Positions 14,309 through 45,801 of a DNA stretch of 49,001 bases are shown piece by piece (the first letter of the stretch is position 1; each line of letters opens with the position of its first letter). Origin of the DNA: Acidobacteriota bacterium (GTDB lineage: Bacteria; Acidobacteriota; Thermoanaerobaculia; UBA5066; Gp7-AA6); the NCBI GenBank assembly GCA_046735265.1, contig JBKPSZ010000011.1:1-49001 (forward strand), read 5' to 3'. The translations under genes were made by a program, and so were the position numbers. The notes under the pieces are model-generated. The model made no database searches, was not told where the DNA came from, and was given only the letters and a program-made list of their open reading frames with translations.

Positions 14309-14324
14309 TGCAAGAAGCAGTCCC
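14309..14324 (-). promoter_or_regulatory. sigma-54 -24/-12 promoter (gfo-kinase-sod)
   Basis: GGGACTGCTTCTTGCA; GG-N10-GC with weaker -24. Confidence 0.55.
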
Positions 14325-14359
14325 ATCCCTGCGGCGAGTCCTCGCTCCGCGCCGGACTG

Positions 14360-14375
14360 TGGCACCTCGGTTGCA
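14360..14375 (+). promoter_or_regulatory. sigma-54 promoter (hydrolase)
   Basis: TGGCACCTCGGTTGCA, consensus match. Confidence 0.8.
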
Positions 14376-14553
14376 AGCTTCGAAAAAAGAAGCGCCGCGC
14401 GCTTCCGGAGGACGCCTCGACCGCGACGACCGACATGCAGAGCCAGCCCGCGATCGGACATCCTCCGATTCCCGCTCTCCTCCCGGAGCCGCGAAACGGC
14501 CTCGATCGACACCCCGTGTGCCCGACCGCGCTCCGTCCCGCCGCCGACCGGCG

Positions 14554-15456
14554 ATGAATCTCTCCGCACGCGCCCGCGCCTCGAAGGCCCGACTCGAACG
14601 CCTCGCGCTCTTCGCCATTCGCTCGGGATTCGCCGCGCTCGATCGGATCAGCCCTTGTGTGGCCGCTCAGTGCGCCGAGACGCTTCTCCGCACGCCGCCT
14701 TCCGCGCGCCTGACCCCGCGGGAACGGCGCCTGCTCGGTTCCGGCCGGCCCGGGTTCTCCCGAACACCGGTCGGCCGACTCGCGCTCTGGCATTGGGGGG
14801 AAGGCCCCGCGATTCTTCTCGTGCACGGCTGGGGAGGCCACGCGGGACGGCTGGCGGAGTTCGCGGCGCCCGTGGCGGCGCTCGGCTTTTCCGTGATCGC
14901 GTTCGACGCGCCGGGGCACGGGGCGTCGAGCACGCGCTTCGGGACGATCTTCGAGCTGATCGACGCGATTCGCGCGCTCGACGACCGATACGGCCCCTTC
15001 ACCGGCGTCATCGGGCATTCTTTGGGCGCGAGCGCCGCGGTCCTCTCGATGCGTCGAGGTGTGACTTTCGAGCGCGCGGTTCTGATCGCACCTCCCGCGG
15101 ATCTCGGCGCCTATCTGCCTCGCTTCGCCCGGCGCTTCGCGCTTCCCCAGCGCACGCGGGAGCTCCTGAAGCAGCGTCTCGAGGATCGCTACGGAATCCG
15201 CTGGGAACGCCTGCGTCTCGCCTCGATCTCGGGCCCGCCGCCGAAGACCGCGATGCTCGTCTTCCACGATTCGCGCGACGCGCGCGTCCCGCTGCGCGAC
15301 GGCGCGGCCATCGCGCGCACGTGGCCGGGCGCCCGGCTCGTGCGCACGCAGGGATTGGGGCACCACCGCATTCTCCGCGACCGCGGAGTCATCAAACGGA
15401 GCGCGGACTTCCTCCACCGCGCAGCGCTTCGCGCTCTCGAGGCCCGAGCGGGCTGA
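14554..15456 (+). CDS. Alpha/beta hydrolase
   Basis: LVHGWGG, FDAPGHG, GHSLG nucleophile, HDSRD, GLGHHRIL. Confidence 0.9.
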   Translation: MNLSARARASKARLERLALFAIRSGFAALDRISPCVAAQCAETLLRTPPSARLTPRERRLLGSGRPGFSRTPVGRLALWHWGEGPAILLVHGWGGHAGRLAEFAAPVAALGFSVIAFDAPGHGASSTRFGTIFELIDAIRALDDRYGPFTGVIGHSLGASAAVLSMRRGVTFERAVLIAPPADLGAYLPRFARRFALPQRTRELLKQRLEDRYGIRWERLRLASISGPPPKTAMLVFHDSRDARVPLRDGAAIARTWPGARLVRTQGLGHHRILRDRGVIKRSADFLHRAALRALEARAG

Positions 15457-15497
15457 CCCCGCGCCGGCCCCGCGTCGGGGGTTATGCTCGACCCGGG

Positions 15498-18407
15498 ATG
15501 AGACTCGCCAGAGGGGTTCGGACGAGCGCCGGAATCGCGCTGGCAGGGCTGGTGCTCAGTGCTCTCGTGGTCGTCACCTACCGAAACGTCCGCGGCGTGA
15601 TCGAGGCCGGGCGCTGGGTCGAGCACACCCGCGACGTCATCGGGCAGCTCGACCAGCTGCGCGCGCTCTTGAAAGAGGCCGAGTCCGGCGCCCGCGCGTA
15701 CGTCCTGACGGGCCAGACGGACAGCCTCGAACCCTATCAAGAGGCCCTGATCGAGGCTCCGGCGTTCGGTGAACGCATCGAGTCGCTCGTTCGGGATAGC
15801 CCGGAACAACTCGCGCGGGCAAAAGACCTCCGTGTTCACCTCGCCGAGAGGCTCGATGCCCTGAAGCAGATCGTCGCGGCGCGCGACTCGGGAGGCCTCG
15901 AGGCCGGTGCCCGGTCGGTCGCCGAGGGGCGCGGAATGCGGGAGATGGAGGTCGTGGAGCAAGTCGCCGACGACATGGTGGCTGCCGAGCGCTCGCTCCT
16001 ATCGACGCGAACTGGAAACTTCGAGCGGGTGGCGCGGGAGGCGCTGATCGCGCTCGCGATCGGCGCCGTGCTCCTCTTCGTCTTCCTCGCGCTGATCGGA
16101 GCGCTCCTGCGGATGGATCTCCTGAAGCGGCACGAGGCGGAAGAACAGCTTCGCCTCTCCGAGGCCGAGATGCGCACGACGCTCCGCTCGATCGGCGACG
16201 GCGTGATCGCGACGGACACGTCGGGCCGGATCGTATTGATGAACACGGTGGCCGAGAACTTGACGGGCTGGCCGGAAGCCGAGGCGATCGGCCGCGCTGT
16301 CTCGGAAGTCTTCCGGGTCGCGAGCGAGACCACCGGGGAGCCGGTCGAGAACCCGATCACTCGGGTCCTCGCCGAAGGTCGAGCGGCCGGTCTCGCGAAC
16401 CAGACGGTCCTGATCCAGCGGACGGGAGAGCGCATCCCGATCGCCGACAGCGGCGCCCCCATCCAAAACGACTCGGGAGAGATCAAGGGCGCGGTCCTCG
16501 TCTTCCGCGACATCGCGGAGAAAAGGTCCGCCGAACGCGATTTGCAGCGGCTCGCGGCGATCGTTTCTTCCTCCGAGGACGCGATCGTGGGAGAGACGCT
16601 CGACGGCAAAATCACCGACTGGAACGCGGCCGCCGAGCGGCTCTTCGGCTATTCGAGCGCCGACGTGATGGGCAAGCACATCGGCCTGCTCGAGCCGCCC
16701 GAATTCGAGGAGTCGACCGGGGCCCGCCTCGGACGGATCCGTCGTGGCGAGCGCGTCCAGGTCTTCGACACGACGCGCGTCACGAAGGACGGCGGTCGCG
16801 TGCCGGTCTCGGTCTCGGTCTCGCCGATCCGGAATTTCGACGGCGCCGTCATCGGCGCTTCGAAGGTCGTCCGCGACATCACGGACCGCAAGAATGCCGA
16901 GATCGCCCTGCGCGCGAGCGAAGAGCGGTTCCGCGTCCTCTCCGACGCCGTCGCGGCTCTCGTCTGGGCCAGCGACGAGCGGGGCCGGTTGACGTACGTC
17001 AATCGGCCCTGGCGGGAATTCACCGGGCACGAGGAGGGGGGGACGCCCGACTCCTGGACCTCGATCGTCCATCCGGACGATCTGCCCGCCGCGCTCGCAA
17101 AGTGGCAAGTCTGCGTCGTGAACGGCGAGCCTTTCGTCGGCGACGTGCGCCTGCGGAGAAAGGATGGCGCCTACCGCTGGTTCGCGGCGCGGACCTCGCT
17201 CATTCCGAGCCGATCGGGCCCGATCTGGGTCGGCACGGCCGCCGACGTGGACGACTTGAAGACGGCCGCATCGGCGCTCCAAAAGGCCAAGGAGGCCGCC
17301 GAGGACGCGGCGCACGCGAAAGACCGCTTCCTGGCGGTGCTCTCGCACGAGCTTCGGACTCCTCTGACTCCCGCGCTCGTCGCGTCGCAGACCCTGGAGC
17401 GCCGTCGCGACCTGCCCGAAGACGCGCGCCAGTCCGCCTCGCTCATTCGCCGCAACGTCGAGCTCGAGGCCCTTCTCGTCGACGACCTCCTCGACCTGAC
17501 CAAGATCGCGCGCGGGATGGTCGAGATCCGGCGCCAAAGCGTGGACGTTCACGAGCTCGTCCGACAGGTCGCCGACATCTGCCGGAGCGACCTCCATGGC
17601 AGACGCCAGATTCTTTCGGTCGAGCTCGCCGCCGCCATTCATCACACCGAGGGGGATCCGGCGCGGCTCCAGCAGGTCTTCTGGAATCTCCTGAAGAACG
17701 CGATCAAGTTCACGCCGGTCGGCGGCTCGATCTCTCTGCGAAGCGAGAACCCACAGACGGAACGGATCCGCCTGTCGGTGAAGGACACCGGAATCGGGAT
17801 CCCCGCGGGGATTCTCCCGCGCATCTTCGATCCGTTCGAGCGGGGTCCCAAGACGATCAGCCCCCGGCTTTCGGGGCTCGGCCTCGGCCTCTCGATCTCG
17901 AGAACTCTGATCGAGCTCCACGGGGGGACGATCCGCGCCGAAAGCGACGGCGAGGGGAAAGGCTCCACGTTCTCCGTCGAGCTCGAGGCGTTCGTCGAGA
18001 AGGCGATCGCCCCGGCCGCTCGCCGAGACGACCAGCGGCGCGCCCGGAAGCTCGCGATCCTTCTGGTCGAGGATCACACCGACACCGCGGGAGCCTTGGC
18101 CGATCTCCTTCAGCAGGAAGGGCACACCGTCACGATCGCCGACTCGACGCAAGCCGCTTTGGAGGCGTTCCGCGCCAACTCCTACGACCTGCTCATCACC
18201 GACCTCGGGCTGCCTGACGGCAACGGGCACGAGCTGCTCGGACAGCTGCGCCGGATCCGTCCGGTCGAAGGGATCGTGCTCTCGGGATACGGGATGGACT
18301 CGGATGTCGCCAAGAGCCGCGCTGCCGGCTTCGCGCACCACCTGACGAAACCCGTTCAGATCGGCAAGCTGCTCAGTACGCTCGCCGAAATCGAAGTCTC
18401 GAACTGA
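15498..18407 (+). CDS. Hybrid sensor kinase CHASE3-PAS x3-HisKA-HATPase-REC
   Basis: WVEHT..V/AESGARAY (CHASE3), SHELRTPL, NLLKNAIKFT, DTGIG, GLGLGL, C-terminal REC LLVEDH..TDLGLPD. Confidence 0.93.
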   Translation: MRLARGVRTSAGIALAGLVLSALVVVTYRNVRGVIEAGRWVEHTRDVIGQLDQLRALLKEAESGARAYVLTGQTDSLEPYQEALIEAPAFGERIESLVRDSPEQLARAKDLRVHLAERLDALKQIVAARDSGGLEAGARSVAEGRGMREMEVVEQVADDMVAAERSLLSTRTGNFERVAREALIALAIGAVLLFVFLALIGALLRMDLLKRHEAEEQLRLSEAEMRTTLRSIGDGVIATDTSGRIVLMNTVAENLTGWPEAEAIGRAVSEVFRVASETTGEPVENPITRVLAEGRAAGLANQTVLIQRTGERIPIADSGAPIQNDSGEIKGAVLVFRDIAEKRSAERDLQRLAAIVSSSEDAIVGETLDGKITDWNAAAERLFGYSSADVMGKHIGLLEPPEFEESTGARLGRIRRGERVQVFDTTRVTKDGGRVPVSVSVSPIRNFDGAVIGASKVVRDITDRKNAEIALRASEERFRVLSDAVAALVWASDERGRLTYVNRPWREFTGHEEGGTPDSWTSIVHPDDLPAALAKWQVCVVNGEPFVGDVRLRRKDGAYRWFAARTSLIPSRSGPIWVGTAADVDDLKTAASALQKAKEAAEDAAHAKDRFLAVLSHELRTPLTPALVASQTLERRRDLPEDARQSASLIRRNVELEALLVDDLLDLTKIARGMVEIRRQSVDVHELVRQVADICRSDLHGRRQILSVELAAAIHHTEGDPARLQQVFWNLLKNAIKFTPVGGSISLRSENPQTERIRLSVKDTGIGIPAGILPRIFDPFERGPKTISPRLSGLGLGLSISRTLIELHGGTIRAESDGEGKGSTFSVELEAFVEKAIAPAARRDDQRRARKLAILLVEDHTDTAGALADLLQQEGHTVTIADSTQAALEAFRANSYDLLITDLGLPDGNGHELLGQLRRIRPVEGIVLSGYGMDSDVAKSRAAGFAHHLTKPVQIGKLLSTLAEIEVSN

Positions 18408-18659: not shown

Positions 18660-18674
18660 CGCAAGACGGTGAGA

Positions 18675-18893
18675 CTACTCCTCTTCGTCGCTCTCCGATC
18701 CGGTTCCCCGGCGGCCGGGGGTTGGCTCGCCGCTCGGGTTGGTCTGCCCCGGGTACTCCTTGCCGCCCTGTCCCTGCCGACCAGGCTCGTTGCCCTGCCG
18801 ACCGGGCTCCTTCGACGGGGAGCCGGTTCGCGGCGATTCGGGTTCGTTCTCACGATGCTTGTCGTCACGGCGCAGATCTTCTCTTTCGGCCAT
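18675..18893 (-). CDS. Small hydrophilic disordered protein
   Basis: MAEREDLRRDDK...; AAGGAG RBS, own promoter and terminator. Confidence 0.8.
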   Translation of the reverse strand: MAEREDLRRDDKHRENEPESPRTGSPSKEPGRQGNEPGRQGQGGKEYPGQTNPSGEPTPGRRGTGSESDEEE

Positions 18894-18945: not shown

Positions 18946-18961
18946 TGCAAGAAGCGTTCCG
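18946..18961 (-). promoter_or_regulatory. sigma-54 promoter
   Basis: CGGAACGCTTCTTGCA. Confidence 0.7.
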
Positions 18962-18977
18962 CGAGGCGAGCGAATGC

Positions 18978-19028
18978 AAAAAAATAGGCCGCGGTGTGCG
19001 GCCGCGGCCCGGGTGAAAGAACTGCCAC
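18978..19028 (-). ncRNA. Candidate sigma-54-dependent sRNA 1
   Basis: Promoter at 19039-19054, then about 18 nt, then GGCCGCGG/CCGCGGCC hairpin and T7. Confidence 0.45.
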
Positions 19029-19038: not shown

Positions 19039-19054
19039 TGCAATCCGTCTGCCA
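19039..19054 (-). promoter_or_regulatory. sigma-54 promoter
   Basis: TGGCAGACGGATTGCA. Confidence 0.7.
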
Positions 19055-19260: not shown

Positions 19261-20979
19261 CTAAAAAGCCTGAGAGCCCGAGAAGGACAAGAGCCATCCC
19301 TTCCGACCGCGGGGATCGGGCTGGAAGGCGTACCCGAGGTCCACGCGCAGGAACGCGGACGCCCGCGCGATCGCGAACCGCAGCCCGACTCCGGCGTCCG
19401 CTTTCAATCGAGACCAGTTGAGCGATTCGCCGGGGGGGGCGGCCGCGCCCGCGTCGACGAACACCGCGAGGCCCGGCGCCACGAGCTGAAAGATCTCGCA
19501 GCCGCAGAAGATGCGGTGCTCGAGGTTGGCGAGAACCCGGCGGTCTCCTTCGAAAGCGTAGAGCGGAGAGGCGCGCAGCCCCGTCGCGCCGTCGGCGTAG
19601 AGGAGCCGGTCCGCGTCGAGATTCCAGCCCCGGGCCGCGGCCACGCGCGCGAGCAGGGTCTGCGGCCGGGCTCCCACGAAGCGGCGCACGAACCGCAGCT
19701 CGCCCGAAACGATCGTGTTCCGCCAGGCGTCGTTCTCCCGCCGGGCGCTTCCCGCGAGCCGGGCGAGGACGAAGGAATTCCCTCCGAGCCGAAAGCCCTC
19801 CTGCCAGTCGAGCCGCGCGAGAGTCGAATTGACGGGCGCGCCGAAGGCCGCGGGAGAGACTCCCACGTCGAGGGTGATCGAGCGGCCCACGTTGAAGTCC
19901 TGGTAGCGGAGGTCCTCATCCACGTAGTTCCACGTCAGGTAGTCGTGCCGCACGAACTGGGCCTCGAGGAAGACGTCGTGATAGGTTCGCGGCGCCGGTC
20001 TCTCCGTCCCTTCCCACCCCGGCGTCTCCGAGAAACGGTCGTCCTGCCAGTCGAGCCCGATGCCGAATCTCAGCGCGCGATCGGGGCTCGCGCGGGCGGC
20101 GAATCCCCAGCGTCCCGTGATCCGCCGAAAGGATCGCTCGTAGCGGGAGACCTCCTCGCCCCCGCGGTAAAGCGATTCCCGGCGTCGGCCGTCGTCGAAG
20201 CGCGCGGCTGCCGTCCAGGGCGCCCGGATCGAATAGAACGGCCGCTCGAGCTCGAGCAGGCGCTCCTCTCCGTCGGAGTTGGATGCGTACACGACGTGGG
20301 CGCGGCCGTACGGCAAGAGGAACTGAGGATCAGAGTATTCGACGACGCGATAGGAGCGGTGGATGTCGTCGCCGTAGGAGACGGACACCCGCCGCCCGGT
20401 GCCGAGCAGGTTCTTCTCGCCCAGCGTGAACCCCTGGTGCATCTCGCCGCCGTCCCGGCCGACGGCGATTCCGACGAGAAGGGTCCAGGCGTCCTGCGTC
20501 TCGACGCGGACGTCCACCAAGCCGTCGTGCGGCTCGGTCGCGATGACCGAGGCCCTCTGAAAGAAGCCGGACGCTCGGAGATTTCTCTCGGTCTCGGCGA
20601 GACGGTCAGGATCGAAGGGGTCCCCCTCATCGAAGAGCAGCAGCCGCCGGACGAGGCTCTCCCGCGTCGTCACGTGCAGCCAGTTCGCCGCGCGATAGAG
20701 CCAGCCGTTAGCGGCCTCCTCGGACGAGAAGATGTCCACCGTTCGAATGTCGATCGAACCGATGCGCAGGTTGCCCTGCGCGCGCGCGAAGAGACTGTAG
20801 AAGAGCGCAGCGAGGCAGGCTCCAGCCCGCGCCGCCAAGAAGGCGGACCGCCCCGCAGGCTCGGGGCGACGAGGCAAAAGACCTCCGCGGGCGGGATGGT
20901 TGGGGTGGAGGGCCCCCGGCCGACGCCGCTCTCGCGCCGCCGTGCGGGAGTTGCAGGAGGGGTGGTTCGAGTCTTCCAT
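19261..20979 (-). CDS. Omp85/BamA-TamA family outer membrane protein
   Basis: POTRA-like LAETERNLR, GEKNLLGTG, GLRA, FVDAG, GVGLRF, terminal F; start uncertain. Confidence 0.82.
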   Translation of the reverse strand: MEDSNHPSCNSRTAARERRRPGALHPNHPARGGLLPRRPEPAGRSAFLAARAGACLAALFYSLFARAQGNLRIGSIDIRTVDIFSSEEAANGWLYRAANWLHVTTRESLVRRLLLFDEGDPFDPDRLAETERNLRASGFFQRASVIATEPHDGLVDVRVETQDAWTLLVGIAVGRDGGEMHQGFTLGEKNLLGTGRRVSVSYGDDIHRSYRVVEYSDPQFLLPYGRAHVVYASNSDGEERLLELERPFYSIRAPWTAAARFDDGRRRESLYRGGEEVSRYERSFRRITGRWGFAARASPDRALRFGIGLDWQDDRFSETPGWEGTERPAPRTYHDVFLEAQFVRHDYLTWNYVDEDLRYQDFNVGRSITLDVGVSPAAFGAPVNSTLARLDWQEGFRLGGNSFVLARLAGSARRENDAWRNTIVSGELRFVRRFVGARPQTLLARVAAARGWNLDADRLLYADGATGLRASPLYAFEGDRRVLANLEHRIFCGCEIFQLVAPGLAVFVDAGAAAPPGESLNWSRLKADAGVGLRFAIARASAFLRVDLGYAFQPDPRGRKGWLLSFSGSQAF

Positions 20980-21000: not shown

Positions 21001-21016
21001 AGCAAGGCGGGTGCCA
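21001..21016 (-). promoter_or_regulatory. sigma-54 promoter (Omp85)
   Basis: TGGCACCCGCCTTGCT. Confidence 0.8.
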
Positions 21017-21028: not shown

Positions 21029-21044
21029 TGGAACGGAACTTGCT
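21029..21044 (+). promoter_or_regulatory. sigma-54 promoter (iron permease-like)
   Basis: TGGAACGGAACTTGCT. Confidence 0.75.
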
Positions 21045-21564: not shown

Positions 21565-21580
21565 TGGCACGTCTCATGCT
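21565..21580 (+). promoter_or_regulatory. sigma-54 promoter (BON)
   Basis: TGGCACGTCTCATGCT. Confidence 0.75.
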
Positions 21581-22510: not shown

Positions 22511-22513
22511 CCG

Positions 22514-22702
22514 TTATGGCGTGGGAGTCGTTGCGGGAGGGACGGGCGTTTCGGCCATCATCGGGGTCGTCCCCGGTGTCGGCGCGCCGCTGTCGGTGGT
22601 CTTCTCGGTCTCCGTCGTGGTCACGGTCTTCTTTTCGCAGCCGCCCGCGAAAAGACAACCGAGCGCCGCAGCCGCAGCGATCGCCATCAGCTTCCTTCGC
22701 AT
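22514..22702 (-). CDS. Small Thr/Pro-rich lipoprotein
   Basis: MRRKLMAIAAAAALGCLFAGGC lipobox; GAGGA RBS. Confidence 0.75.
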   Translation of the reverse strand: MRRKLMAIAAAAALGCLFAGGCEKKTVTTTETEKTTDSGAPTPGTTPMMAETPVPPATTPTP

Positions 22703-22764: not shown

Positions 22765-22780
22765 TGCAGAAGGCGTGCCT
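22765..22780 (-). promoter_or_regulatory. sigma-54 promoter
   Basis: AGGCACGCCTTCTGCA. Confidence 0.7.
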
Positions 22781-22800: not shown

Positions 22801-22816
22801 AGGCATGTTCCTTGCT
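22801..22816 (+). promoter_or_regulatory. sigma-54 promoter
   Basis: AGGCATGTTCCTTGCT. Confidence 0.72.
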
Positions 22817-22872: not shown

Positions 22873-23184
22873 ATGAGGAACAGACTCGTGGCCGCGATGT
22901 CGGCGCTGGCGTTCGTCTGCCTGGCGACTCTTGCCGTGGCGGCGCCCGATCCGAGCCAGAGCGATACGAAGTCCGTCAGTGGCGTGATTTCCCGCGTGGA
23001 TATGAACGCCAAGTCGATGGTCGTCAAGGACGCGTCTGGCAACGAGGTCACCGTTTACTGGAACGAGGCGACCCGGGTCAGCGGCGATCTGCGGGAGGGG
23101 TCTACGGTGAAGATCGACACCCGCGAGCAGGACGGCAAGACCTGGGCGACGTCGATCGACGTTCAGGCCAAGAAGCCTTACTGA
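22873..23184 (+). CDS. Small secreted beta-rich protein (OB-fold/DUF5666-like)
   Basis: Signal peptide; SGVISRVD...DLREGSTVKI; AAGGAG RBS. Confidence 0.75.
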   Translation: MRNRLVAAMSALAFVCLATLAVAAPDPSQSDTKSVSGVISRVDMNAKSMVVKDASGNEVTVYWNEATRVSGDLREGSTVKIDTREQDGKTWATSIDVQAKKPY

Positions 23185-27409: not shown

Positions 27410-27425
27410 TGCGAAAACCGTGCCG
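27410..27425 (-). promoter_or_regulatory. sigma-54 promoter (otsBA-GH15)
   Basis: CGGCACGGTTTTCGCA. Confidence 0.7.
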
Positions 27426-27446: not shown

Positions 27447-27462
27447 TGGCAGGCGAATTGCT
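27447..27462 (+). promoter_or_regulatory. sigma-54 promoter (metallothionein-PRC)
   Basis: TGGCAGGCGAATTGCT. Confidence 0.75.
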
Positions 27463-29344: not shown

Positions 29345-29360
29345 AGCGAAAAGCGTGCCA
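29345..29360 (-). promoter_or_regulatory. sigma-54 promoter
   Basis: TGGCACGCTTTTCGCT. Confidence 0.75.
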
Positions 29361-31040: not shown

Positions 31041-31691
31041 TTACGCCTTCGAGGCGTAGTGCGCGATCACGGTCACCTTGTCTCCGTTGTCCCCCTTCCG
31101 GTAGGTCACCTTGACCCGGTCACCCACCGCGACGGGACGAAGGATGGAGGCGTTCTCGTCCAGATCGAACGTGAAGTCCTTGTCTCCCGGTCCGGTCACG
31201 ACGATCTTCTTGCCGGGCTCGTACTTCTTGATCGTTCCGACGACCGTCTCCGTCTTCACCTTCGTGTCGGGCGCGTTCGGCACCTTGTTCTTCACCGTCT
31301 CTTCCGTGTGAGAGCGAGGCATGGCCGCCGCGTTCGGCATGGCGCCCGGTCCGGACGCCTCGGACAGGACGGAGACGCGCTCGTGTCCGTCGTTGTCCTT
31401 CCAGTACTGGACCTTGGCCTTCTGACCCACGGCGATCGCGCCGGTCACCTTGGCGTTCTCGTCGAGGTCGAAGGTATAGGTCTTGTCGTTGGGGCCGGAG
31501 ATCTTGATCTTCTTACCGGCCTCGTACTCCTTCACCGTCCCGACGACCGATTCCATCTTGGTCTTCGTGTCGGGGCCGGGTCCGGAGTGCTTCACGGTCG
31601 TCTCCGTGTGCGTCTTCGTCTGCGGCTCCTGGGCGAGCGCCAGGCTTCCGGCCGCGAGACAGACTCCGACCAAAACCAGAGCTCGTTTCAT
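31041..31691 (-). CDS. Secreted protein with two tandem beta-rich repeats
   Basis: Signal peptide; duplicated VVGT.K.YE.GKKI...GP.DK..TFDLDENA. Confidence 0.85.
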   Translation of the reverse strand: MKRALVLVGVCLAAGSLALAQEPQTKTHTETTVKHSGPGPDTKTKMESVVGTVKEYEAGKKIKISGPNDKTYTFDLDENAKVTGAIAVGQKAKVQYWKDNDGHERVSVLSEASGPGAMPNAAAMPRSHTEETVKNKVPNAPDTKVKTETVVGTIKKYEPGKKIVVTGPGDKDFTFDLDENASILRPVAVGDRVKVTYRKGDNGDKVTVIAHYASKA

Positions 31692-31738: not shown

Positions 31739-31754
31739 TTCAAGAGTCGTGCCG
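31739..31754 (-). promoter_or_regulatory. sigma-54-like promoter (variant -12)
   Basis: CGGCACGACTCTTGAA. Confidence 0.5.
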
Positions 31755-35057: not shown

Positions 35058-35073
35058 AGCAGATTTCGTGCCT
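35058..35073 (-). promoter_or_regulatory. sigma-54 promoter (GT4 operon)
   Basis: AGGCACGAAATCTGCT. Confidence 0.7.
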
Positions 35074-35119: not shown

Positions 35120-35389
35120 CTACCGGCCGGCCCGGGCCCGACCGATTCCATAGGTCGGCGCCGGCGGAACCGCTTCCGGCGGGGAGGGGAAACGCTTCAC
35201 CGACGCGACCGATCCGCGCGGGCCCTTCCCTCCGTCGCCTTCTTCCGAGGCGCCGGTCCGGACGAAGAGAACAGAAAGCAGCGCGGCGGAACAGGCGAGG
35301 ACGATGTAAAGCGAACCCGAAATCGCGTAGAACAACGCCACACCGACGATCAGAACGAGCAGTGCGGCGAGGATCAGCTGACGAAACAT
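35120..35389 (-). CDS. Small 2-TM hypothetical protein
   Basis: MFRQLILAALLVLIVGVALFY... Confidence 0.6.
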   Translation of the reverse strand: MFRQLILAALLVLIVGVALFYAISGSLYIVLACSAALLSVLFVRTGASEEGDGGKGPRGSVASVKRFPSPPEAVPPAPTYGIGRARAGR

Positions 35390-35434: not shown

Positions 35435-35450
35435 AGCAATCCGCCTGCCA
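35435..35450 (-). promoter_or_regulatory. sigma-54 promoter
   Basis: TGGCAGGCGGATTGCT. Confidence 0.75.
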
Positions 35451-37754: not shown

Positions 37755-37770
37755 AGCAAGGTCCGTACCA
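37755..37770 (-). promoter_or_regulatory. sigma-54 promoter
   Basis: TGGTACGGACCTTGCT. Confidence 0.78.
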
Positions 37771-37787: not shown

Positions 37788-37803
37788 GGGTACGGGACTT
37801 GCT
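37788..37803 (+). promoter_or_regulatory. sigma-54 promoter
   Basis: GGGTACGGGACTTGCT. Confidence 0.7.
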
Positions 37804-37825: not shown

Positions 37826-38209
37826 ATGAAAAAGGGGAAAAAGAACGAAAAAGCCGAGCGACGCGACGCCGAAGCCCCGCACGACTCGGAATCGACGATG
37901 CGGAAGGGCATGGCGACGGAAGGCGTGGAAGTGGACGACGCGGAGACGATGGCGTCGACGGGAAATGCCGCCGCCTCCTTTCAAGAAGTCGCGAGCGGAA
38001 CCGCGACTGGCCGCGGCCTCGATCGAGAGGAGACCGGCGGAACCGGCGGCCTCGCGGCGGGCGAGGACTCCGACGATGTCGCCGCCGGAGACTGGGATCG
38101 CGCGGAGCTGCGCTCCCCGGCCGCCTACCCCGAGCCCGGCCGCGAGGTGCCCGAGCCGGAGCGCGAGCTCACGGCGCGCGACTTCCTGCCCGAGGACGAC
38201 GAGGACTGA
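37826..38209 (+). CDS. Acidic hydrophilic hypothetical protein
   Basis: MKKGKKNEK...; GGAG RBS; D/E-rich. Confidence 0.7.
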   Translation: MKKGKKNEKAERRDAEAPHDSESTMRKGMATEGVEVDDAETMASTGNAAASFQEVASGTATGRGLDREETGGTGGLAAGEDSDDVAAGDWDRAELRSPAAYPEPGREVPEPERELTARDFLPEDDED

Positions 38210-40082: not shown

Positions 40083-40098
40083 AGCAAAGGCCGCGCCG
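40083..40098 (-). promoter_or_regulatory. sigma-54 promoter
   Basis: CGGCGCGGCCTTTGCT. Confidence 0.65.
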
Positions 40099-40108: not shown

Positions 40109-40124
40109 TGGCACACCCCTTGCG
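40109..40124 (+). promoter_or_regulatory. sigma-54 promoter
   Basis: TGGCACACCCCTTGCG. Confidence 0.78.
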
Positions 40125-40137: not shown

Positions 40138-41850
40138 ATGTCGGCGGCCCGAAACACCGCGGGCCGGGCATGGCGACGTGTCTTCGCGCGGGGCCGCACC
40201 TCGCGCCGATTCGCGATCGCCGGCGCCTCGGTCCTCGCCCTCGTCCTCCTGGCCGGGGTCGCTTCCGTTCTCCTGGACGCGCCGGTCCGGCGCAGCATGG
40301 AACGCGAGGTGAACCGGCGCCTCCAGGGCTATTCCGTTCGAATCGGGAAGCTCGACCTGCAGCTCTACCGGCTCGCCGTGGATCTTCGGGACGTCACGAT
40401 TCGACAGGAATCGAATCCCGAGCCGCCGATGGCGAGTCTCCCGCGCCTGCACGCGAGTATCGAGTGGCGCGCTCTCCTGCGCGGCCGCCTCGTGGCCGAT
40501 TTCCTCTTTCAGAAGACGCAGCTCTACGTGAACCTGACTCAGGCGAAGAGCGAGGCGAAGAGCCCGACGCGTCTGAAGGACAAAGGCTGGCAGGAGGCGG
40601 CGCTCGCGATTTTTCCCCTGAAGATCAACACGCTCCGCGTCGAGGACGGACGCGTCACCTACATCGACACGGACCCCGCGCATCCGATCCAGCTCTCGCA
40701 TCTCGACTTCGAGGCGAAGGACATCCGGAACGTGCGGTCCCAGCCGCACGCGTATCCGTCTCCCGTCCGCGCGACCGCCGTCGTCTTCGACTCCGGCCGC
40801 GCGTCGATCGAGGGGCACGCGGACTTTCTCTCGGAGCCCTTCCCCGGGATCCACGTTCGCTTCTCGCTTCGCGAGATCCCGCTTCAGCAGCTCCAGCCCG
40901 TCTCCCACCACGCGAACCTCTCGGTTCGCGGCGGGACCCTGTCCGCGCAGGGAGAGACCGAGCTCGCGCCGGGAGTCCGACTGGCGTCGATCTCGGATCT
41001 CGCGATTTCGGGTTTGAAGGTCGACTACGTGCGCGCGGCCGCGCCGAAACAGGCGTCCGCCGGCGGCGCGGCGAAGGCCAGCGCGAAATCGCCGCCGACG
41101 AGCGGAGGCGTGCCCGGAAAGGATCGGCTCGCATTGCGCGTCGACGGCCTCCGGATCACTGACAGCGAGTTCGGTCTCGAGGATCGGACGAAGGATCCGC
41201 CGTATCGCGTTTACATCGACCAGGCGGAATTCCGGCTCGACGGCTACGGCCGCCTCGACTCTCCCGCGCCCGCGAACGCCGTCCTGACGGGTCGCTTCCA
41301 GGGAAGCGGCCCGGCGCGGGCGACGCTCAAAATGGCACCGGACCGGGGGAAAGGGCCCGACTTCGATCTCGCCGTGCGCATCGACAACACCGACATGACG
41401 AAGATGAATCGCCTCCTCGACGCCTACGGGAACTTCGACGTGACGGAAGGCCGCTTCTCGCTCTACTCCGAGATTTCCGTCCGCGACGGAATGGTGCGCG
41501 GTTACGTCAAGCCGCTCTTTCGCGACATGAAGGTCTACGACCCGCAGCAGGACAAGAAGAAGGGCTTCTTCCGCGAGGTCTACGAGGGTCTCGTCGGAGT
41601 CGTCACGAAGCTCCTCGAAAACAAGCGCGACGAGGTGGCGACGGTCGCGGAGTTGAGCGGTCCGATCGCGAAACCCGGTTCGAACACGCTTCAGGTGATC
41701 GGAGGTCTCGTCCAGAACGCCTTCTTCAAGGCGATTCTGCCGGGGCTCGAGAGGGACATCGCGCGGATGCCGAAGAAGACAGCGGCAATCCCGGAACCCG
41801 CGGATCGCCGGGCGGCCGCCCCCGCCTCCCTCGCTCAGTCGAGCTGGTAA
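40138..41850 (+). CDS. DUF748/AsmA-like protein
   Basis: N-terminal TM; AYGNFDV..G.FSLYSE...GYVKPLF, NAFFKAILPG. Confidence 0.82.
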   Translation: MSAARNTAGRAWRRVFARGRTSRRFAIAGASVLALVLLAGVASVLLDAPVRRSMEREVNRRLQGYSVRIGKLDLQLYRLAVDLRDVTIRQESNPEPPMASLPRLHASIEWRALLRGRLVADFLFQKTQLYVNLTQAKSEAKSPTRLKDKGWQEAALAIFPLKINTLRVEDGRVTYIDTDPAHPIQLSHLDFEAKDIRNVRSQPHAYPSPVRATAVVFDSGRASIEGHADFLSEPFPGIHVRFSLREIPLQQLQPVSHHANLSVRGGTLSAQGETELAPGVRLASISDLAISGLKVDYVRAAAPKQASAGGAAKASAKSPPTSGGVPGKDRLALRVDGLRITDSEFGLEDRTKDPPYRVYIDQAEFRLDGYGRLDSPAPANAVLTGRFQGSGPARATLKMAPDRGKGPDFDLAVRIDNTDMTKMNRLLDAYGNFDVTEGRFSLYSEISVRDGMVRGYVKPLFRDMKVYDPQQDKKKGFFREVYEGLVGVVTKLLENKRDEVATVAELSGPIAKPGSNTLQVIGGLVQNAFFKAILPGLERDIARMPKKTAAIPEPADRRAAAPASLAQSSW

Positions 41851-42068: not shown

Positions 42069-42347
42069 CTACGAGCGCCGGTCGTGGCCCGCGACTTTCA
42101 CGAGCTTGTTGTAGAGACCGAAGATCAAAAGAGTCGGCACCCACTGGCCGAAGAAGTTCGACAGAGTCGCGAGCCTTCGGCTGCGGGTCGCCTGTAGCCC
42201 GAGCGACGCGACCATCGAAGCGAGCGCTCCCCACAGCCAGACGTCGGACGGAAGCTTCGCAGTCTGGCGCTCGATCTCGCGCGCGACGGGGCCTTCGCGC
42301 ACGTCCTTATCCGACGAGACGGTGGATTCGACTTCTTGTGATTCCAT
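42069..42347 (-). CDS. Small membrane protein
   Basis: EGPVAREIERQTAKLPSD.WLW...FFGQWVPTLLIFGLYNKLVK; AGGAG RBS. Confidence 0.82.
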   Translation of the reverse strand: MESQEVESTVSSDKDVREGPVAREIERQTAKLPSDVWLWGALASMVASLGLQATRSRRLATLSNFFGQWVPTLLIFGLYNKLVKVAGHDRRS

Positions 42348-42405: not shown

Positions 42406-42421
42406 TGCACCTCACATGCCA
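42406..42421 (-). promoter_or_regulatory. sigma-54 promoter
   Basis: TGGCATGTGAGGTGCA. Confidence 0.65.
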
Positions 42422-42432: not shown

Positions 42433-42448
42433 CGGCACGTCGGTTGCA
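42433..42448 (+). promoter_or_regulatory. sigma-54 promoter
   Basis: CGGCACGTCGGTTGCA. Confidence 0.78.
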
Positions 42449-42493: not shown

Positions 42494-42736
42494 ATGACCG
42501 ACATGCGCTGCGAAGTCTGCGGAAATTCCTATGACAAGGCGTTCGAGCTGCGGGTCGCCGGCGCGGTTCACGTGTTCGATTCGTTCGAGTGCGCGATACA
42601 CGCGCTCGCGCCCACCTGTAAACATTGCGGCTGCCGGATCCTGGGACACGGGATCGAGAGCGCCGGGGTCTTCTTCTGCTGCGCGAGCTGCGCGCGGATG
42701 GACGGGACGCCCGGCGCCCGCGACCGGCTGGCTTGA
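42494..42736 (+). CDS. Cys-rich metal-binding (metallothionein/TRASH-like) protein
   Basis: CEVCGN.YDKAF, FDSFECAIH, CKHCGCRILGHG, FCCASC. Confidence 0.85.
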   Translation: MTDMRCEVCGNSYDKAFELRVAGAVHVFDSFECAIHALAPTCKHCGCRILGHGIESAGVFFCCASCARMDGTPGARDRLA

Positions 42737-42820: not shown

Positions 42821-43102
42821 TTAGGTTCCTTCGTCCTCGTCTTCTCCGGTTCCGCGCTTCCCGCTTTGACCGGGCCGTCCGCTCTGCCCCGACGACTCCT
42901 TCTTGCCGGTGAATTGCCCCTGCTCGTCGCGCGGCTGGTCGGCGCTTCCCTGGCCGCCGCGGCCTTGCGTCGAACGGCTGCGCCCGGATTCGCTCGAATC
43001 TTTGTCGCCCGGCCGGCTCGATCCACTCTGACCGGTCCGTCCACCCTGTCCGCTCCGTCCGCCTCGTCCGCCCTGTCCCGAACGATTGTCTTTCTCTGGC
43101 AT
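42821..43102 (-). CDS. Gly/Ser/Arg-rich hydrophilin-like protein
   Basis: Repeated SGQGGR, RDEQGQF; AGGAGG RBS. Confidence 0.78.
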   Translation of the reverse strand: MPEKDNRSGQGGRGGRSGQGGRTGQSGSSRPGDKDSSESGRSRSTQGRGGQGSADQPRDEQGQFTGKKESSGQSGRPGQSGKRGTGEDEDEGT

Positions 43103-43132: not shown

Positions 43133-43148
43133 TACAAGAAACATGCCT
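43133..43148 (-). promoter_or_regulatory. sigma-54-like promoter (variant -12)
   Basis: AGGCATGTTTCTTGTA. Confidence 0.5.
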
Positions 43149-43219: not shown

Positions 43220-43235
43220 TGGCACGCATCCTGCT
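43220..43235 (+). promoter_or_regulatory. sigma-54 promoter
   Basis: TGGCACGCATCCTGCT. Confidence 0.78.
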
Positions 43236-43263: not shown

Positions 43264-43887
43264 ATGAAGGAATCCCAGGTCGAAAATCTCTTGTACGAGG
43301 CGCTCGAAACCGAGATGGGGGGCGTTCAGGTCTACACGAACGCGGTCGAGTGCGCCCAGAACGAGGATCTGAAGAAGGAGTGGGAGGAGTATCTCGAGCA
43401 GACGCAGCGTCACGAGGAGATCCTGCGCGAAGTCTTCGACAAGCTCGGGCTCGATCCCGAGAAGGAGACGCCCGGACGCCGGATCGTGCGTCACCAGGGG
43501 GAGTCGCTCGTCGAAGCCATCCAGATGGCCCGCAAGGGCGGCGAACCCGAGGCGGCCCAGATCGTGGCCGCCGAGTGCGTCGTTCTCGCCGAAACGAAGG
43601 ACCATCAGAACTGGGAGCTGATCGGCGAGGTGTCGAAGAAGGCCACGGGAGAGACCAAGAAGGTCCTGTCGGAGGCGCACGACGAGGTCGAGGACGAGGA
43701 GGACGAGCACCTGTACCACACGATGGGATGGTCCCGGGAGCTCTGGATGGATTCGCTGGGGCTCCCCGCCGTGCTTCCGCCTCCGGAAGAGGAGAAGGAC
43801 GTCAAGACGGCGATCGGAGCGGCCCGCGCCAAGCAGTCGCGCAAGGAGATGCTCCGGGGCGGCAAGTCCGACCGGCGCTCTGCCTGA
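43264..43887 (+). CDS. Ferritin-like (DUF892-like) protein
   Basis: LYEALETEMGG..VY, QTQRH, AETKDH.NW, EDEEDEHLYH. Confidence 0.85.
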   Translation: MKESQVENLLYEALETEMGGVQVYTNAVECAQNEDLKKEWEEYLEQTQRHEEILREVFDKLGLDPEKETPGRRIVRHQGESLVEAIQMARKGGEPEAAQIVAAECVVLAETKDHQNWELIGEVSKKATGETKKVLSEAHDEVEDEEDEHLYHTMGWSRELWMDSLGLPAVLPPPEEEKDVKTAIGAARAKQSRKEMLRGGKSDRRSA

Positions 43888-43945: not shown

Positions 43946-43961
43946 GGGTACGCGAGTTGCA
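43946..43961 (+). promoter_or_regulatory. sigma-54 promoter with no downstream CDS
   Basis: GGGTACGCGAGTTGCA. Confidence 0.65.
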
Positions 43962-43971
43962 TTGTGAGGAG

Positions 43972-44036
43972 ACGGGTTACTAAGAGTTTTCGGAAGGCCG
44001 CGAGTCCGACGGGGGCGTTAGCGGCCGTTCTTTTTT
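43972..44036 (+). ncRNA. Candidate sigma-54-dependent sRNA 2
   Basis: Promoter, then AU-rich stretch, then GGCCGC/GCGGCC stem and T6. Confidence 0.42.
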
Positions 44037-44074
44037 CTACGAGGCTTTCGAGAGGCACCGGCTCGATCGGAGCG

Positions 44075-45079
44075 TCACAGGAATTTCTCGAGCCGAAGGC
44101 GGCCCCGCTGCGCCAGGAGCCCTTTCCAGAGATCCCCCTTTCGCTTCAACCTCGCCGGCGCGTTGTCCATCCGGAAGTCGGCCAGCTCGACGCCCTTCGA
44201 GATCTCCGCCCACGTCACGGGCATCGAGACCGTCGCGCGGGGCCGCGGGCGGACCGAGTAGATCGACGCGAGCGTCCTCCCCCAGGCGTTCTGGTTGTAG
44301 TCCACGAGAACGCGCCCGTGCGGCCGGTCGGCCACGACGTAGACCGCCGTGACGAGCTTCGGGTCGCGCGTCTCCATCACGCGCGCGACCTCCTTGGCGA
44401 ACGTCCAGACCTGCTTCTGCGTCGGGCCCCGGACGATCGGGACGTAGACGTGGATTCCGCGCGAGCCGGTCGTTTTCGCGAAGCTCGGGATCTTCAGGTG
44501 GTCGAGCGTGTCCTTGAGCAGGAGGGCGGTGTCGAGGACCTTCCGCCACGTCGCGCCCGGCACCGGGTCGAGGTCGAAGTGCAGATAGTCGGGGCGGTCC
44601 ACGTCGTCGCAGCGCGCGTACCACTGATTGAGGTCGATGCACCCCAGGTTGACGACCCAGAGGAGCGCCGGCAGGTCCTGGATCATCGGGAAGTCGATCA
44701 CGTTGCCCGAGGAGTGCGCGATCGAGCAGGTCTCGATCCAGTCGGGACGCGGCGACGGCGCGCGCTTCATGAAGAAAAACTCCCCGTCCGCGCCGTGCGG
44801 GTAGCGCTTCATCACCATGGCGCGGTCCTTCAGGTGCGGGAGCAGATACGTCGAGACGTCGGCGTAGTACTGGAGAAGGTCCCCTTTCGTCCGGCCGAGT
44901 TCGCGCCAGAAGACCTTGTTCAGGTTCGTCAGCTGGACGATCCGGCCGCCGAAGTCGAGCGCGACGTCGTTCGACTCGCGCGGGATCACGAGACGGCCGG
45001 GGAAGTCCAGCGCCGCCTTTGCCCGCGGGCGTGGGCTGCGTCGGGACGGATGGTGATCGCGCGTGGCCCGGGGCGTCAC
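44075..45079 (-). CDS. ligD: LigD-type primase-polymerase domain protein (POL only)
   Basis: TNLNKVFW, TKGDL..YY, RYPHG, PDYLHFDLDP, KTTGSRGIH, VDYNQN, YSVR; no ligase domain. Confidence 0.88.
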   Translation of the reverse strand: MTPRATRDHHPSRRSPRPRAKAALDFPGRLVIPRESNDVALDFGGRIVQLTNLNKVFWRELGRTKGDLLQYYADVSTYLLPHLKDRAMVMKRYPHGADGEFFFMKRAPSPRPDWIETCSIAHSSGNVIDFPMIQDLPALLWVVNLGCIDLNQWYARCDDVDRPDYLHFDLDPVPGATWRKVLDTALLLKDTLDHLKIPSFAKTTGSRGIHVYVPIVRGPTQKQVWTFAKEVARVMETRDPKLVTAVYVVADRPHGRVLVDYNQNAWGRTLASIYSVRPRPRATVSMPVTWAEISKGVELADFRMDNAPARLKRKGDLWKGLLAQRGRLRLEKFL

Positions 45080-45711
45080 GTCGTCAACCGCTCGCCGGAG
45101 CGGGGCAATCGCGGGAGCCGCGGCGGCCGAGGACCGTGGCGGACGGCGCCCGCGATCGGGGCGTAGTCGAGCTCCTTGCCCTCCCGCGCTCCGCGCAGAA
45201 GGAGTCCTCCGCGGCTCATGTCTCCCCTTCCCACGAAGGACGGCGGAAAGAGAAGCCGCGCGCCGAAGATCCCGAGGAGGAGGTCCACGTACTTGCCCGT
45301 CGCGACGCTCCCGAGCAGAACGACTTCCGCCTCCGGCCCCGCGATCCGCCGCAGGCGCCGCGCGTCGCGCTCGAGCGGTTTCCGGTAACGCGGATTGTCC
45401 TGGTGAATGTCGACTTCGGCGAATCGCCGGAGATCCTGGAGTCGGACCGGCGCGTCCGCCGGCACGAGCCCGTGCGTCGGCGTGATCACGAGCGCTCCCG
45501 GCAGGTCTCCCGACGGCCGCGCGAACCGAGTCGCGTAGAGGAGCTTTCCGCGGAAGTAGAGTCCCGACAAAAAGGCAAAGACGTCGCCCAGCGGCGCGCC
45601 GCCCTCCCGGAGCCGGAGCGCGAGGTCGAAGCGGGCTTCCTCGCGGAGGAGCAGACGCGCCCGCAAACCCGCGCAACTGGCGGGTGAGAGAAGAAAGAAC
45701 CGCGGTGTCAT
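45076..45711 (-). CDS. Hypothetical protein, weakly YaaA/DUF328-like
   Basis: FLLSPA, SGLYFRGK, LVITPTHGLVP, GRGDMSRGGLLLR; GTGA overlap with ligD-POL. Confidence 0.75.
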   Translation of the reverse strand: MTPRFFLLSPASCAGLRARLLLREEARFDLALRLREGGAPLGDVFAFLSGLYFRGKLLYATRFARPSGDLPGALVITPTHGLVPADAPVRLQDLRRFAEVDIHQDNPRYRKPLERDARRLRRIAGPEAEVVLLGSVATGKYVDLLLGIFGARLLFPPSFVGRGDMSRGGLLLRGAREGKELDYAPIAGAVRHGPRPPRLPRLPRSGERLTT

Positions 45712-45785
45712 GTGCGGAGAATATGCAAAGAGGGCACTCCTCCGGCGCGGCCCTTCGACGGATTGGGGACATATACTCCCCGCTC

Positions 45786-45801
45786 TGGCCCGTGTTTCGC
45801 A
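45786..45801 (+). promoter_or_regulatory. sigma-54 promoter (CheB/CheR kinase)
   Basis: TGGCCCGTGTTTCGCA. Confidence 0.65.

Follow-up and report, generated by a model that had tools for sequence, protein, structure and literature searches.

A conserved cluster of stress-type genes behind putative sigma-54 promoters in an uncultured soil acidobacterium

Introduction

General stress responses are textbook cases of control by sigma factors of the sigma-70 family, and otsBA, BON/OsmY-like, DUF892/YciEF-like, Ku/LigD and PRC-barrel genes are among the contents of the RpoS, SigB and EcfG regulons. Can a gene set of this type be wired to sigma-54 (RpoN) instead? The question is raised by a complete contig of 49,001 bp (JBKPSZ010000011.1), analysed here at full length and called the window, from an uncultured soil acidobacterium of the Thermoanaerobaculia whose assembly (GCA_046735265.1; 3.95 Mb in 362 contigs) is 94% complete. 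Between 14.3 and 45.8 kb lies an island of ~68% GC with 26 inferred transcription units, about 25 of which have a -24/-12-like site upstream (23 canonical and two variant), and many unrelated protective genes thus sit behind one alternative-sigma motif across 32 kb. An original prediction held that the general stress response is run here by RpoN. We find that the motif is genuine and conserved in relatives, and we consider it likely that the island is a conserved sigma-54 stress or desiccation regulon driven by an enhancer-binding protein (EBP) encoded within it.

Enrichment and orientation of the promoter motif

Genes were called from codon-usage log-odds trained on the long open reading frames (ORFs) of the genome, a procedure blind to the motif that yielded 47 genes within the window and 3,642 genome-wide; small ORFs were added manually where a Shine-Dalgarno-like sequence and an ATG stood after a site. 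Protein families were assigned through Pfam and NCBIfam profile matches. We verified GG-N10-GC at all 23 positions for which exact elements had been claimed, each time on the strand facing the downstream ORF or hairpin-ended unit and never within a called gene (0 of 23). The two variants that had been named were also recovered, 31739 as GG-N10-GA and 43133 as GG-N10-GT, and all 25 sites are co-oriented with an ORF or hairpin-ended unit, also where they lie between same-strand genes.

The bare pattern on which the original prediction relied carries no signal, as in the intergenic DNA of the island (26 stretches, 4,920 bp) it occurs 109 times against 97.1 ± 9.4 in dinucleotide shuffles. We dropped it as a criterion, the signal residing only in the fuller consensus TGGCAC-N5-TTGCW, which is strongly enriched. 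With at most two mismatches allowed, the window contains 30 matches compared with 6.88 ± 2.68 (maximum 15) in 100 dinucleotide shuffles. When GG and GC are additionally held fixed, the intergenic DNA of the island contains 22 matches, which are every claimed exact site except 14309, compared with 0.40 ± 0.58 (maximum 3) in 200 shuffles, and the rest of the genome contains 127 compared with 25.15 ± 3.48 (324 kb of intergenic DNA). The 381 matches genome-wide divide into 149 intergenic (0.451 per kb) and 232 coding (0.064 per kb), a roughly sevenfold difference in density, so that the motif stands out from both shuffled and coding background. Sites that are oriented towards a gene at most 300 nt away number 117, and 17 of them are on the present contig, which makes up 1.2% of the genome. 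We confirm on these grounds that the listed sites represent a genuine, island-enriched motif. The accompanying claim that the first 14 kb have no such elements holds in so far as there are 0 consensus matches there, in a stretch with just 1,144 bp of intergenic DNA.

Chance or base composition, for which the unenriched bare pattern could be cited, is already refuted as an explanation by the 22 matches against 0.40 expected and by the conservation reported below (33 of 42 against 1 of 31), and we give it practically no weight. The motif could also be the site of another factor, such as a repressor or an ECF-type (extracytoplasmic function) sigma factor, that merely resembles the sigma-54 consensus, and this would suit the lack of enrichment of bare GG-N10-GC and the abundance of GG...GC strings in high-GC genomes. 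However, both elements and their fixed spacing fit the sigma-54 consensus, including the G that follows TGGCAC, the orientation is strict, and the seven promoter pairs that stand back to back have starts at variable distances of 26-51 nt, which argues against one palindromic operator. The start-codon peak described below fits sigma-54 spacing too, and both an EBP and rpoN are present, leaving this second explanation very improbable. That the sites are working sigma-54 (-24/-12) promoters is, by contrast, likely.

Outside the island, a perfect palindrome, TGGCAC-N4-GTGCCA, lies at 11065-11080 between the divergent genes 10501-10971(-) and 11159-11530(+); given its GG-N9-GC spacing it is more like the operator of a dimeric regulator than a sigma-54 promoter.

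Conservation of the sites and of the cluster in relatives

Related genomes are denoted here by labels, with G000 being the present genome, G002, G010 and G004 members of the same genus and G019 a member of another genus. Using thresholds of at least 45% identity and at least 60% coverage, we found that 33 of 42 orthologues of genes that come first in their unit (14 locus sets) have a site at most 300 nt upstream, compared with 1 of 31 orthologues of control genes taken from positions 1-13138 of the window. The motif is thus conserved at orthologues, and in several of the misses (for example OtsB in loci L025 and L026) a site stands farther upstream in the same intergenic region.

Upon comparing regions of 40-60 kb from G002, G010, G004 and G019, we observed EBP-centred clusters in all four, as well as in L025 and L026, with sites at the same genes and with varying size and gene order. 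In G002, all 10 intergenic sites of 60 kb fall inside a 12-kb cluster, and the promoter of the DUF5670 gene adjoins the EBP gene in 12 of 12 loci. Orthologues of the DUF892 gene occur in 7 of 24 genomes of the family and in 2 of 11 other genomes of the genus, and 6 of the 7 (5 of 6 without the unpublished genome G022) have a site within ~70 nt upstream. The cluster is best described as a variable regulon cluster whose size differs among relatives. We rejected the idea of a mobile island: GC content is flat across the window (64-73%) and does not change where the cluster lies, and the housekeeping genes on either side of it are its neighbours in relatives too, although integrases were not searched for. 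Whole-genome pattern counts in five relatives were discarded, the reversed-pattern control being equal or higher (32+22 against 60+71 in G002); with the control as high as this, counts that include coding DNA cannot test the type of EBP against regulon size.

Position of start codons relative to the motif

Next, we examined the distance between the end of the motif and the called start codon. Among the 117 oriented sites, 19 have the start codon at 12-15 nt and none at 9-11 or 16 nt. Examples from the window are the sites at 40083 (13 nt), 40109 (14 nt) and 45786 (15 nt), and an ATG also stands 15 nt after the motif at 35058. By convention the C of the GC element is at -12, so that start codons within the peak would have their first base between +2 and +5, and many of the transcripts would be leaderless or nearly leaderless. 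Because the gene caller ignores the motif, the peak is independent backing for the promoter reading as well as for the position at which transcription is expected to start; it fits transcription starts ~11-12 nt downstream of GC and suggests leaderless or near-leaderless mRNAs from sigma-54 promoters.

In a soil metatranscriptome run (X1), 6% of sampled words were present, and contigs were mapped to 18500-38499. Contigs with 0-2 differences cover 22893-23172 (DUF5666), 27525-27691 and 27728-28040 (the Cys-rich/PRC unit) and 31030-31195 (the 216-aa gene). Such near-identity indicates that the organism or a very close strain is in the RNA library, with DNA carry-over being possible.

The candidate activator and its missing DNA-binding domain

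The genome has the sigma factor that the original prediction presupposed: rpoN is present as a single intact copy (contig C164, 486 aa) with AID, CBD and DBD domains. It also holds 12 full-length EBP frames (PF00158) plus fragments, one only in the 49-kb contig. This protein, P0001 (29383..30687, -), combines a REC domain (PF00072, residues 4-114), a coiled-coil linker, an AAA+ domain (PF00158, E=1e-69) and a lid, and its closest solved structure is NtrC1 (1NY5, E=7e-91, residues 3-380). The acceptor D54 is invariant in 11 orthologues, as are the Walker motifs and F221, T222, G223 and A224 of the loop GSFTGA; with this invariant GAFTGA-type loop and the Walker motifs, P0001 looks like an active activator.

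What P0001 does not have is a helix-turn-helix (HTH) recognisable by Pfam, and a six-frame search with HTH_8 matched every full EBP frame except that of P0001 (11 of 12). No NCBIfam equivalog, FlgR included, matched it at cut-off. Its last ~44 residues, counted by eye, contain 14 Lys/Arg and 6 Asp/Glu. Homologues at E<=1e-130 are found in 28 of 41 genomes, G000 included (19 of 24 in the family, 6 of 7 and 2 of 9 in sister families). Upon inspecting the C-termini of 34 homologous loci, we observed a basic tail in 29 and a Fis-type HTH in 5; two of the tail-type loci come from the unpublished genomes G022 and G030 (27 of 32 without them), and L022 and L116 are apparently the same contig. All 19 loci of the own family are of the tail type, while one sister genus is tail-type and another HTH-type, and the tails are not alignable across homologues but are alike in composition. 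A Fis-type DNA-binding domain thus appears to have been replaced in P0001 by a short basic tail, and P0001 is most likely the activator of the cluster.

If so, how would it find its promoters? In the 215 nt upstream of the 25 sites, no exact 7-, 8- or 9-mer exceeded shuffles (the best words had a support of 12, 8 and 5, while shuffles reached up to 15, 9 and 6), and back-to-back pairs with starts so close together leave no intergenic room for enhancers. From the absent HTH, the lack of a shared upstream word, the back-to-back layout and the published precedents cited below, we infer that P0001 possibly activates without enhancers.

The ORF directly upstream of the EBP gene, overlapping its start by 4 nt, encodes an 84-aa protein, P0002 (30684..30938, -), which seems to consist of a DHp (HisKA) domain only and is a candidate phosphotransferase. 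It has an H-box, and its HisKA match is weak (E=6e-4, under the Pfam cut-off). The histidine H21 is invariant in 10 sequences, of which 5 carry HATPase_c, a domain that P0002 does not have. In five relatives a minimal kinase of 198-225 aa with DHp and HATPase_c occupies the DHp position (Pfam-confirmed in the two that were scanned), and the window and four others have a DHp-only stub of 74-88 aa. The minimal kinases (for example L023:9354-10004 and L024:9330-10004) have no sensor domain, the catalytic domain having been naturally lost in the stub versions. A predicted complex of two DHp proteins with the REC domain scored 0.60, the best control reaching 0.06, with at least 85% of contacts agreeing between runs and a partner pLDDT of at least 83. 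This lends weak support. In calibration, 58 of the 80 solved complexes passed the mark, as did 2 of 110 mismatched pairs, and scores of at most 0.60 were given by just 7 of the 80 solved complexes plus both passing mismatches; kinase-receiver complexes have already been solved, and the pass may therefore reflect likeness only.

Genes and sites of the island

At the left edge of the island, the weak -24/-12-like site at 14309..14324(-), with four mismatches, precedes genes on the minus strand for a GFO/IDH/MocA oxidoreductase (13146-14291), a Ser/Thr kinase (12215-13138) and an Fe/Mn superoxide dismutase (11586-12203), which, given gaps of 7 and 11 nt, possibly form one unit read from it; the G019 orthologue has a better site and the G010 orthologue none. 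Facing the other way, the site at 14360..14375(+) has 0 mismatches, has equivalents at the matching place in G010, G004 and G002, and stands before an operon of an alpha/beta hydrolase (14554..15456, +) and a CHASE3-PAS-HisKA-HATPase-REC hybrid histidine kinase (15498..18407, +), a candidate sensor with orthologues of 57-75% identity in G002, G010 and G004.

The site at 18946..18961(-), conserved at 2 of 2 orthologues, precedes a 72-aa hydrophilic Gly/Glu/Pro/Arg-rich protein (18675..18893, -) with no Pfam match. The prediction that two sites precede small RNA candidates was borne out, the sites at 19039(-) and 43946(+) being followed by terminator-like hairpins and no ORF. The first, at 19039..19054(-) with 1 mismatch, is followed by a candidate short RNA of ~50 nt (inferred ends 18978..19028, -) with a hairpin at 19010-18986 and a T-run, for which blastn against related loci gave zero matches. 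A back-to-back pair comes next, with the site at 21001..21016(-), which has 0 mismatches, serving a POTRA/Omp85-like outer-membrane protein (19261..20979, -; weak profile matches) and the site at 21029..21044(+), near-identical in G004, serving a protein of the low-affinity iron permease family PF04120 (21066..21551, +; E=5.5e-52). The site at 21565..21580(+), found at 2 of 3 orthologues, stands before genes for a BON-domain protein with a signal peptide (21663-21983, +) and a DUF1328 protein (22028-22207, +). Further on, 22765..22780(-) precedes a 62-aa lipoprotein-like ORF (22514..22702, -) and 22801..22816(+), present at 3 of 3 orthologues, a secreted DUF5666 protein (22873..23184, +).

In the middle of the island, the site at 27410..27425(-) stands before otsB (26510-27394), otsA (25047-26513) and a GH15 TreH-like trehalase gene (23206-25050), all on the minus strand; the trehalase matches NCBIfam TreH1 at E=1.5e-125, under the family cut-off. 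Its partner at 27447..27462(+), whose 16-mer is identical in G002 and G004, precedes a 50-aa Cys-rich ORF (27488-27640), a PRC-barrel gene (27719-28084) and Ku (28184-29038), all on the plus strand, and the back-to-back pair is likewise present in L025, L026, G004 and G019. Right after the EBP gene, the site at 29345..29360(-) precedes the gene of a 49-aa DUF5670 membrane protein (29132..29281, -) and is present at 12 of 12 orthologues. The EBP and DHp genes themselves follow a 216-aa secreted two-repeat protein to which no family was assigned (31041..31691, -), and before these three genes stands the variant GG-N10-GA site (31739..31754, -), with canonical sites at 2 of 5 orthologues.

The site at 35058..35073(-), also present in L026, precedes a GT4 glycosyltransferase (33946-35046, -) and a GDE_N_bis/MGH1-like glycoside hydrolase (31740-33920, -), and that at 35435..35450(-) an 89-aa membrane ORF (35120..35389, -). 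ARAGORN calls a 92-nt tRNA-Pro(CGG) at 35353-35444(-), overlapping the latter site and the start of the ORF, which is probably a false call in GC-rich DNA, as Rfam reports no tRNA in the window at gathering score. A further pair consists of 37755..37770(-), before genes for a 124-aa protein (37368-37742), a metallophosphoesterase (36403-37371) and a GDPD (glycerophosphodiester phosphodiesterase) protein (35462-36406), all on the minus strand, and 37788..37803(+), before a 127-aa acidic, probably disordered ORF (37826..38209, +). The end of this ORF is uncertain because of an 85-nt overlap with the 3' end of a convergent gene for a UDG-superfamily glycosylase (38125-38772, -); the ORF may really stop sooner, or else the two transcripts would be antisense to each other where they end. 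The glycosylase gene and that of a 401-aa membrane protein (38865-40070, -) lie behind the site at 40083..40098(-), and a DUF748/AsmA-like gene (40138..41850, +) behind 40109..40124(+), with the site of the G019 orthologue standing 13 nt before the start.

Towards the right end, 42406..42421(-) precedes a 92-aa membrane ORF (42069..42347, -) and 42433..42448(+), present at 2 of 2 orthologues, an 80-aa Cys-rich ORF (42494..42736, +). The variant GG-N10-GT site (43133..43148, -) stands before a 93-aa Gly/Ser/Arg/Gln-rich hydrophilin (42821..43102, -) and the site at 43220..43235(+) before a DUF892/ferritin-like gene (43264..43887, +). The second candidate short RNA (~70 nt, inferred ends 43972..44040, +), without an ORF, follows the site at 43946..43961(+) and has a hairpin at 44011-44032 with a T-run; it matches G010 only over the hairpin (90% over 41 nt, ~46 nt after the motif). 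Both in the window (43946-44040) and in G010 (L145:12528-12566) the module of motif and hairpin adjoins the 3' end of a convergent LigD-type gene, with the upstream gene differing, and the module may act as a bidirectional terminator or encode a short RNA antisense to the end of the LigD mRNA. No Rfam family was found at gathering score in the full window, so that the short RNA candidates belong to no known family. The LigD primase-polymerase gene (44075-44989, -) and that of a 211-aa protein (45076-45711, -) form the lone unit without a canonical site, and the site at 45786..45801(+) stands before a CheB-CheR-PAS sensor gene (45816..49001, +) that runs off the contig.

Upon grouping these genes by function, we find signalling (the hybrid kinase with its alpha/beta hydrolase, and the CheB-CheR-PAS sensor), trehalose and sugars (OtsB, OtsA and the TreH-like trehalase, and the GT4 with the GDE/MGH1-like hydrolase), DNA repair (Ku, the UDG-superfamily glycosylase and the LigD primase-polymerase), small protective proteins (BON, DUF1328, DUF5666, PRC-barrel, DUF5670 and DUF892 proteins, along with three that are hydrophilic and of low complexity and two that are Cys-rich) and an envelope and other set (POTRA/Omp85-like, DUF748/AsmA-like, PF04120, GDPD and metallophosphoesterase). 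The families agree with the stress-type genes that had been predicted for the island, and the gene content, as read from them, is of the general-stress or desiccation type. The regulon could be real and yet be a specialised programme for desiccation, dormancy or resting cells in place of a general stress response. Trehalose, hydrophilins, Ku with LigD, and BON and envelope proteins do dominate the content, and genes that are patchy within the genus, such as DUF892 (2 of 11 in the genus, 7 of 24 in the family), would fit an accessory niche trait; the motif elsewhere in the genome, however, precedes a broader set, including glyoxalase, SDR (short-chain dehydrogenase/reductase), Zn-dependent alcohol dehydrogenase (Zn-ADH), HrcA, DUF3175 and ABC1-kinase genes, and we regard this narrower reading as somewhat doubtful.

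Sites elsewhere in the genome

We annotated 38 downstream genes elsewhere, from 46 sites that have at most one mismatch or lie in site-rich contigs. Genes of stress type among them are a DUF892 paralogue with a divergent Zn-ADH, a 383-aa BON protein, DUF5666, glyoxalase-fold, SDR, DUF3175, HAD, ABC1 kinase and HrcA genes. The motif also precedes non-stress genes, namely those of two MacB/FtsX permeases, a TonB-type receptor, kinases, a peptidase and PKD/DUF11 proteins. The mixture of targets indicates that several sub-regulons depend on sigma-54, the stress-type set being the largest one to be seen. Two contigs are rich in sites, with C302 (6 sites) carrying the 383-aa BON, DUF5666, ABC1 kinase, methyltransferase and DAO-Rieske oxidoreductase genes and C15 (4 sites) the divergent pair of DUF892 paralogue and Zn-ADH. 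The gene of the heat-shock repressor HrcA (C273:3997-5064) has a 1-mismatch site 27 nt before its called start.

Discussion

Joining these observations, we propose the following mechanism. A stress signal would be sensed by the hybrid kinase, itself encoded behind a sigma-54-type site, and perhaps also by the CheB-CheR-PAS sensor; phosphate would pass through the DHp-only protein, co-transcribed with the EBP, to the EBP receiver, upon which the AAA+ ring would assemble. Needing no sequence-specific enhancer, the ring would then remodel closed E-sigma54 complexes while in solution or while bound non-specifically to DNA through the tail. All promoters would fire together, the kinase's and probably the EBP operon's included, giving positive feedback, and many transcripts would begin at the start codon or within about 4 nt of it. 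In this scheme the relay from hybrid kinase through DHp protein to EBP is suggested by gene order and domain logic, and the service of all island promoters by P0001, the inducing signals and the leaderless starts are likewise put forward from sequence.

Several points weigh against this picture. The site at 14309 is weak, those at 31739 and 43133 depart from the canonical form, and a proper site is missing from the LigD unit (a TTTGCA lies 13 nt before its ATG, with AG in place of GG at the -24 spacing). The start-codon peak depends on start codons called by a simple in-house gene caller, and the metatranscriptome gave few contigs, in four genes only, that are blind to starts, strand and level. 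The search for shared upstream words covered exact words only and is blind to degenerate sites. The putative stress role is deduced from the gene families. The other 11 EBPs of the genome have an HTH, and an enhancer-independent EBP would be expected to cross-activate, which leaves specificity unexplained. Finally, in the closed genome G028, from a sister family, there is a comparable sigma-54 stress cluster with back-to-back pairs and with Ku, LigD-like, BON, AsmA-like and CheB-CheR-PAS genes, and all 14 EBPs of G028 match HTH_8, the closest homologue of P0001 among them; the REC-AAA+ EBP adjacent to the G028 cluster is a different one, 45% identical to P0001. The compact layout therefore does not need an EBP without a DNA-binding domain, an idea weakened accordingly, and lineages may use different activators. 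The G028 cluster itself (L197-L200, G028:C1:298001-343000) has 12 intergenic sites in 40 kb, with four back-to-back pairs, and in its adjacent EBP the HTH_8 lies in another reading frame than the AAA+ domain, owing to a frameshift or sequencing error.

These observations give some substance to another explanation, in which sigma-54 does use the promoters, but with several HTH-bearing EBPs as activators and with enhancers inside neighbouring coding sequence, while P0001 controls only DUF5670 or is a co-factor or inhibitor. It draws on the 11 other EBPs with HTH_8, on G028, where the EBP beside a like island is a different one, and on the fact that no promoter other than that of DUF5670 adjoins the EBP gene throughout the relatives (12 of 12). 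It does not sit well with the fact that no second EBP is encoded in the 49-kb contig, that no shared upstream word was found, that the islands in G002, G010, G004, G019, L025 and L026 are centred on a P0001-type EBP, and that the GAFTGA-type loop and Walker motifs of P0001 are invariant in 11 orthologues. We consider it unlikely, and prefer a conserved regulon driven by P0001. As for the original prediction of a general stress response run by RpoN, the part concerning RpoN stands on enrichment, the presence of rpoN and conservation, and the stress role on gene content only. Two of the outcomes named in advance as refuting it, a motif no commoner than background and a genome without rpoN, did not occur.

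How does such a regulon compare with known systems? RpoS (Gammaproteobacteria), SigB (Firmicutes) and EcfG (Alphaproteobacteria) share with it an overlapping repertoire and the use of one sigma factor for many small stress genes, but they are sigma-70-family factors switched by anti-sigma factors or proteolysis, whereas the promoters here are of the -24/-12 type and would be fired by an ATP-driven EBP under a phosphorelay. Control by a sigma-70-family factor, as in those regulons, is thus not what we find, although the genome was not searched for RpoS, SigB or EcfG homologues. Histidine phosphotransferases of the Spo0B/ChpT type derive from kinases, and P0002, as read from its sequence, resembles them in having a DHp helix pair and an H-box His without an ATPase domain; it is much smaller, and its predicted complex with the receiver is weakly supported. 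With Aquifex aeolicus NtrC1 (1NY5) and DctD-type EBPs, P0001 shares REC, coiled-coil linker and AAA+ domains, differing in the absence of an HTH. Organisms with FlgR or CtcC have small genomes and essentially one EBP, whereas P0001 is 1 of 12 and has a basic tail of Lys, Arg, Ala, Pro and Ser that is conserved in kind; its targets would be stress genes, theirs being flagellar or developmental.

EBPs without a DNA-binding domain are indeed known, with passages in Francke et al. 2011 (PMC3162934) and PMC7482065 naming CtcC, FlgR and FleT (type Ic). Going by what those passages describe, Helicobacter FlgR and Chlamydia CtcC are like P0001 in having REC and AAA+ without an HTH, in two-component control and in their expected enhancer-free action. 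The truncated, AAA+-only DctD250 is described in a part of PMC3844500 as activating many sigma-54 promoters enhancer-free, as P0001 would; going by that part, DctD250 is engineered and also without a receiver, whereas P0001 is natural, receiver-controlled and basic-tailed. A role of sigma-54 in stress responses is stated in the abstract of PMC7057263, and a link between sigma-54 and stress is on that account not new in itself.

Each of the parts belongs to a known kind, be it the -24/-12 promoters, the NtrC1-like activator or the EBP lacking a DNA-binding domain. What is new is the near-complete sigma-54 wiring of a gene set of general-stress type, conserved across at least two Thermoanaerobaculia families, and the occurrence of a basic-tailed EBP without a DNA-binding domain alongside many other EBPs in one genome. 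A third new feature is the peak of start codons, which suggests leaderless sigma-54 transcripts. The original prediction had called the architecture undescribed for this lineage, and our literature search agrees, finding no description of a sigma-54 stress regulon in Acidobacteriota or Thermoanaerobaculia, with subscription journals and supplements outside the search. The main text of PMC12316311 has zero mentions of 'Acidobacteri', 'trehalose', 'general stress' or 'desiccation', and the supplements of that paper and of PMC3162934 may list acidobacterial genomes. The series of homologues with an HTH or a basic tail offers a ready system for asking how enhancer dependence is lost, and the start-codon peak draws attention to leaderless mRNAs made from sigma-54 promoters, a case that has been little studied.

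Few groups of bacteria are as abundant in soil as the Acidobacteriota, and little is known about the way in which they survive drying. The promoter motif together with the activator makes the regulon directly testable in soil metatranscriptomes. Should the reading of a regulon driven by P0001 be true, the same job would be done by a mechanistically different switch, with a tight off-state, all-or-none activation and no anti-sigma factor. A wider and more tentative proposal, which may well claim too much, is that sigma-54 is the master general stress or desiccation factor in this Thermoanaerobaculia family, acting through a phosphorelay-controlled EBP that has a histone-like basic tail instead of a sequence-specific DNA-binding domain, so that gaining a 16-nt promoter would be enough to bring any gene into the regulon. 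If true, this would explain the dense back-to-back promoters, the variable island content and the leaderless transcripts, and would add a further paradigm beside RpoS, SigB and EcfG.

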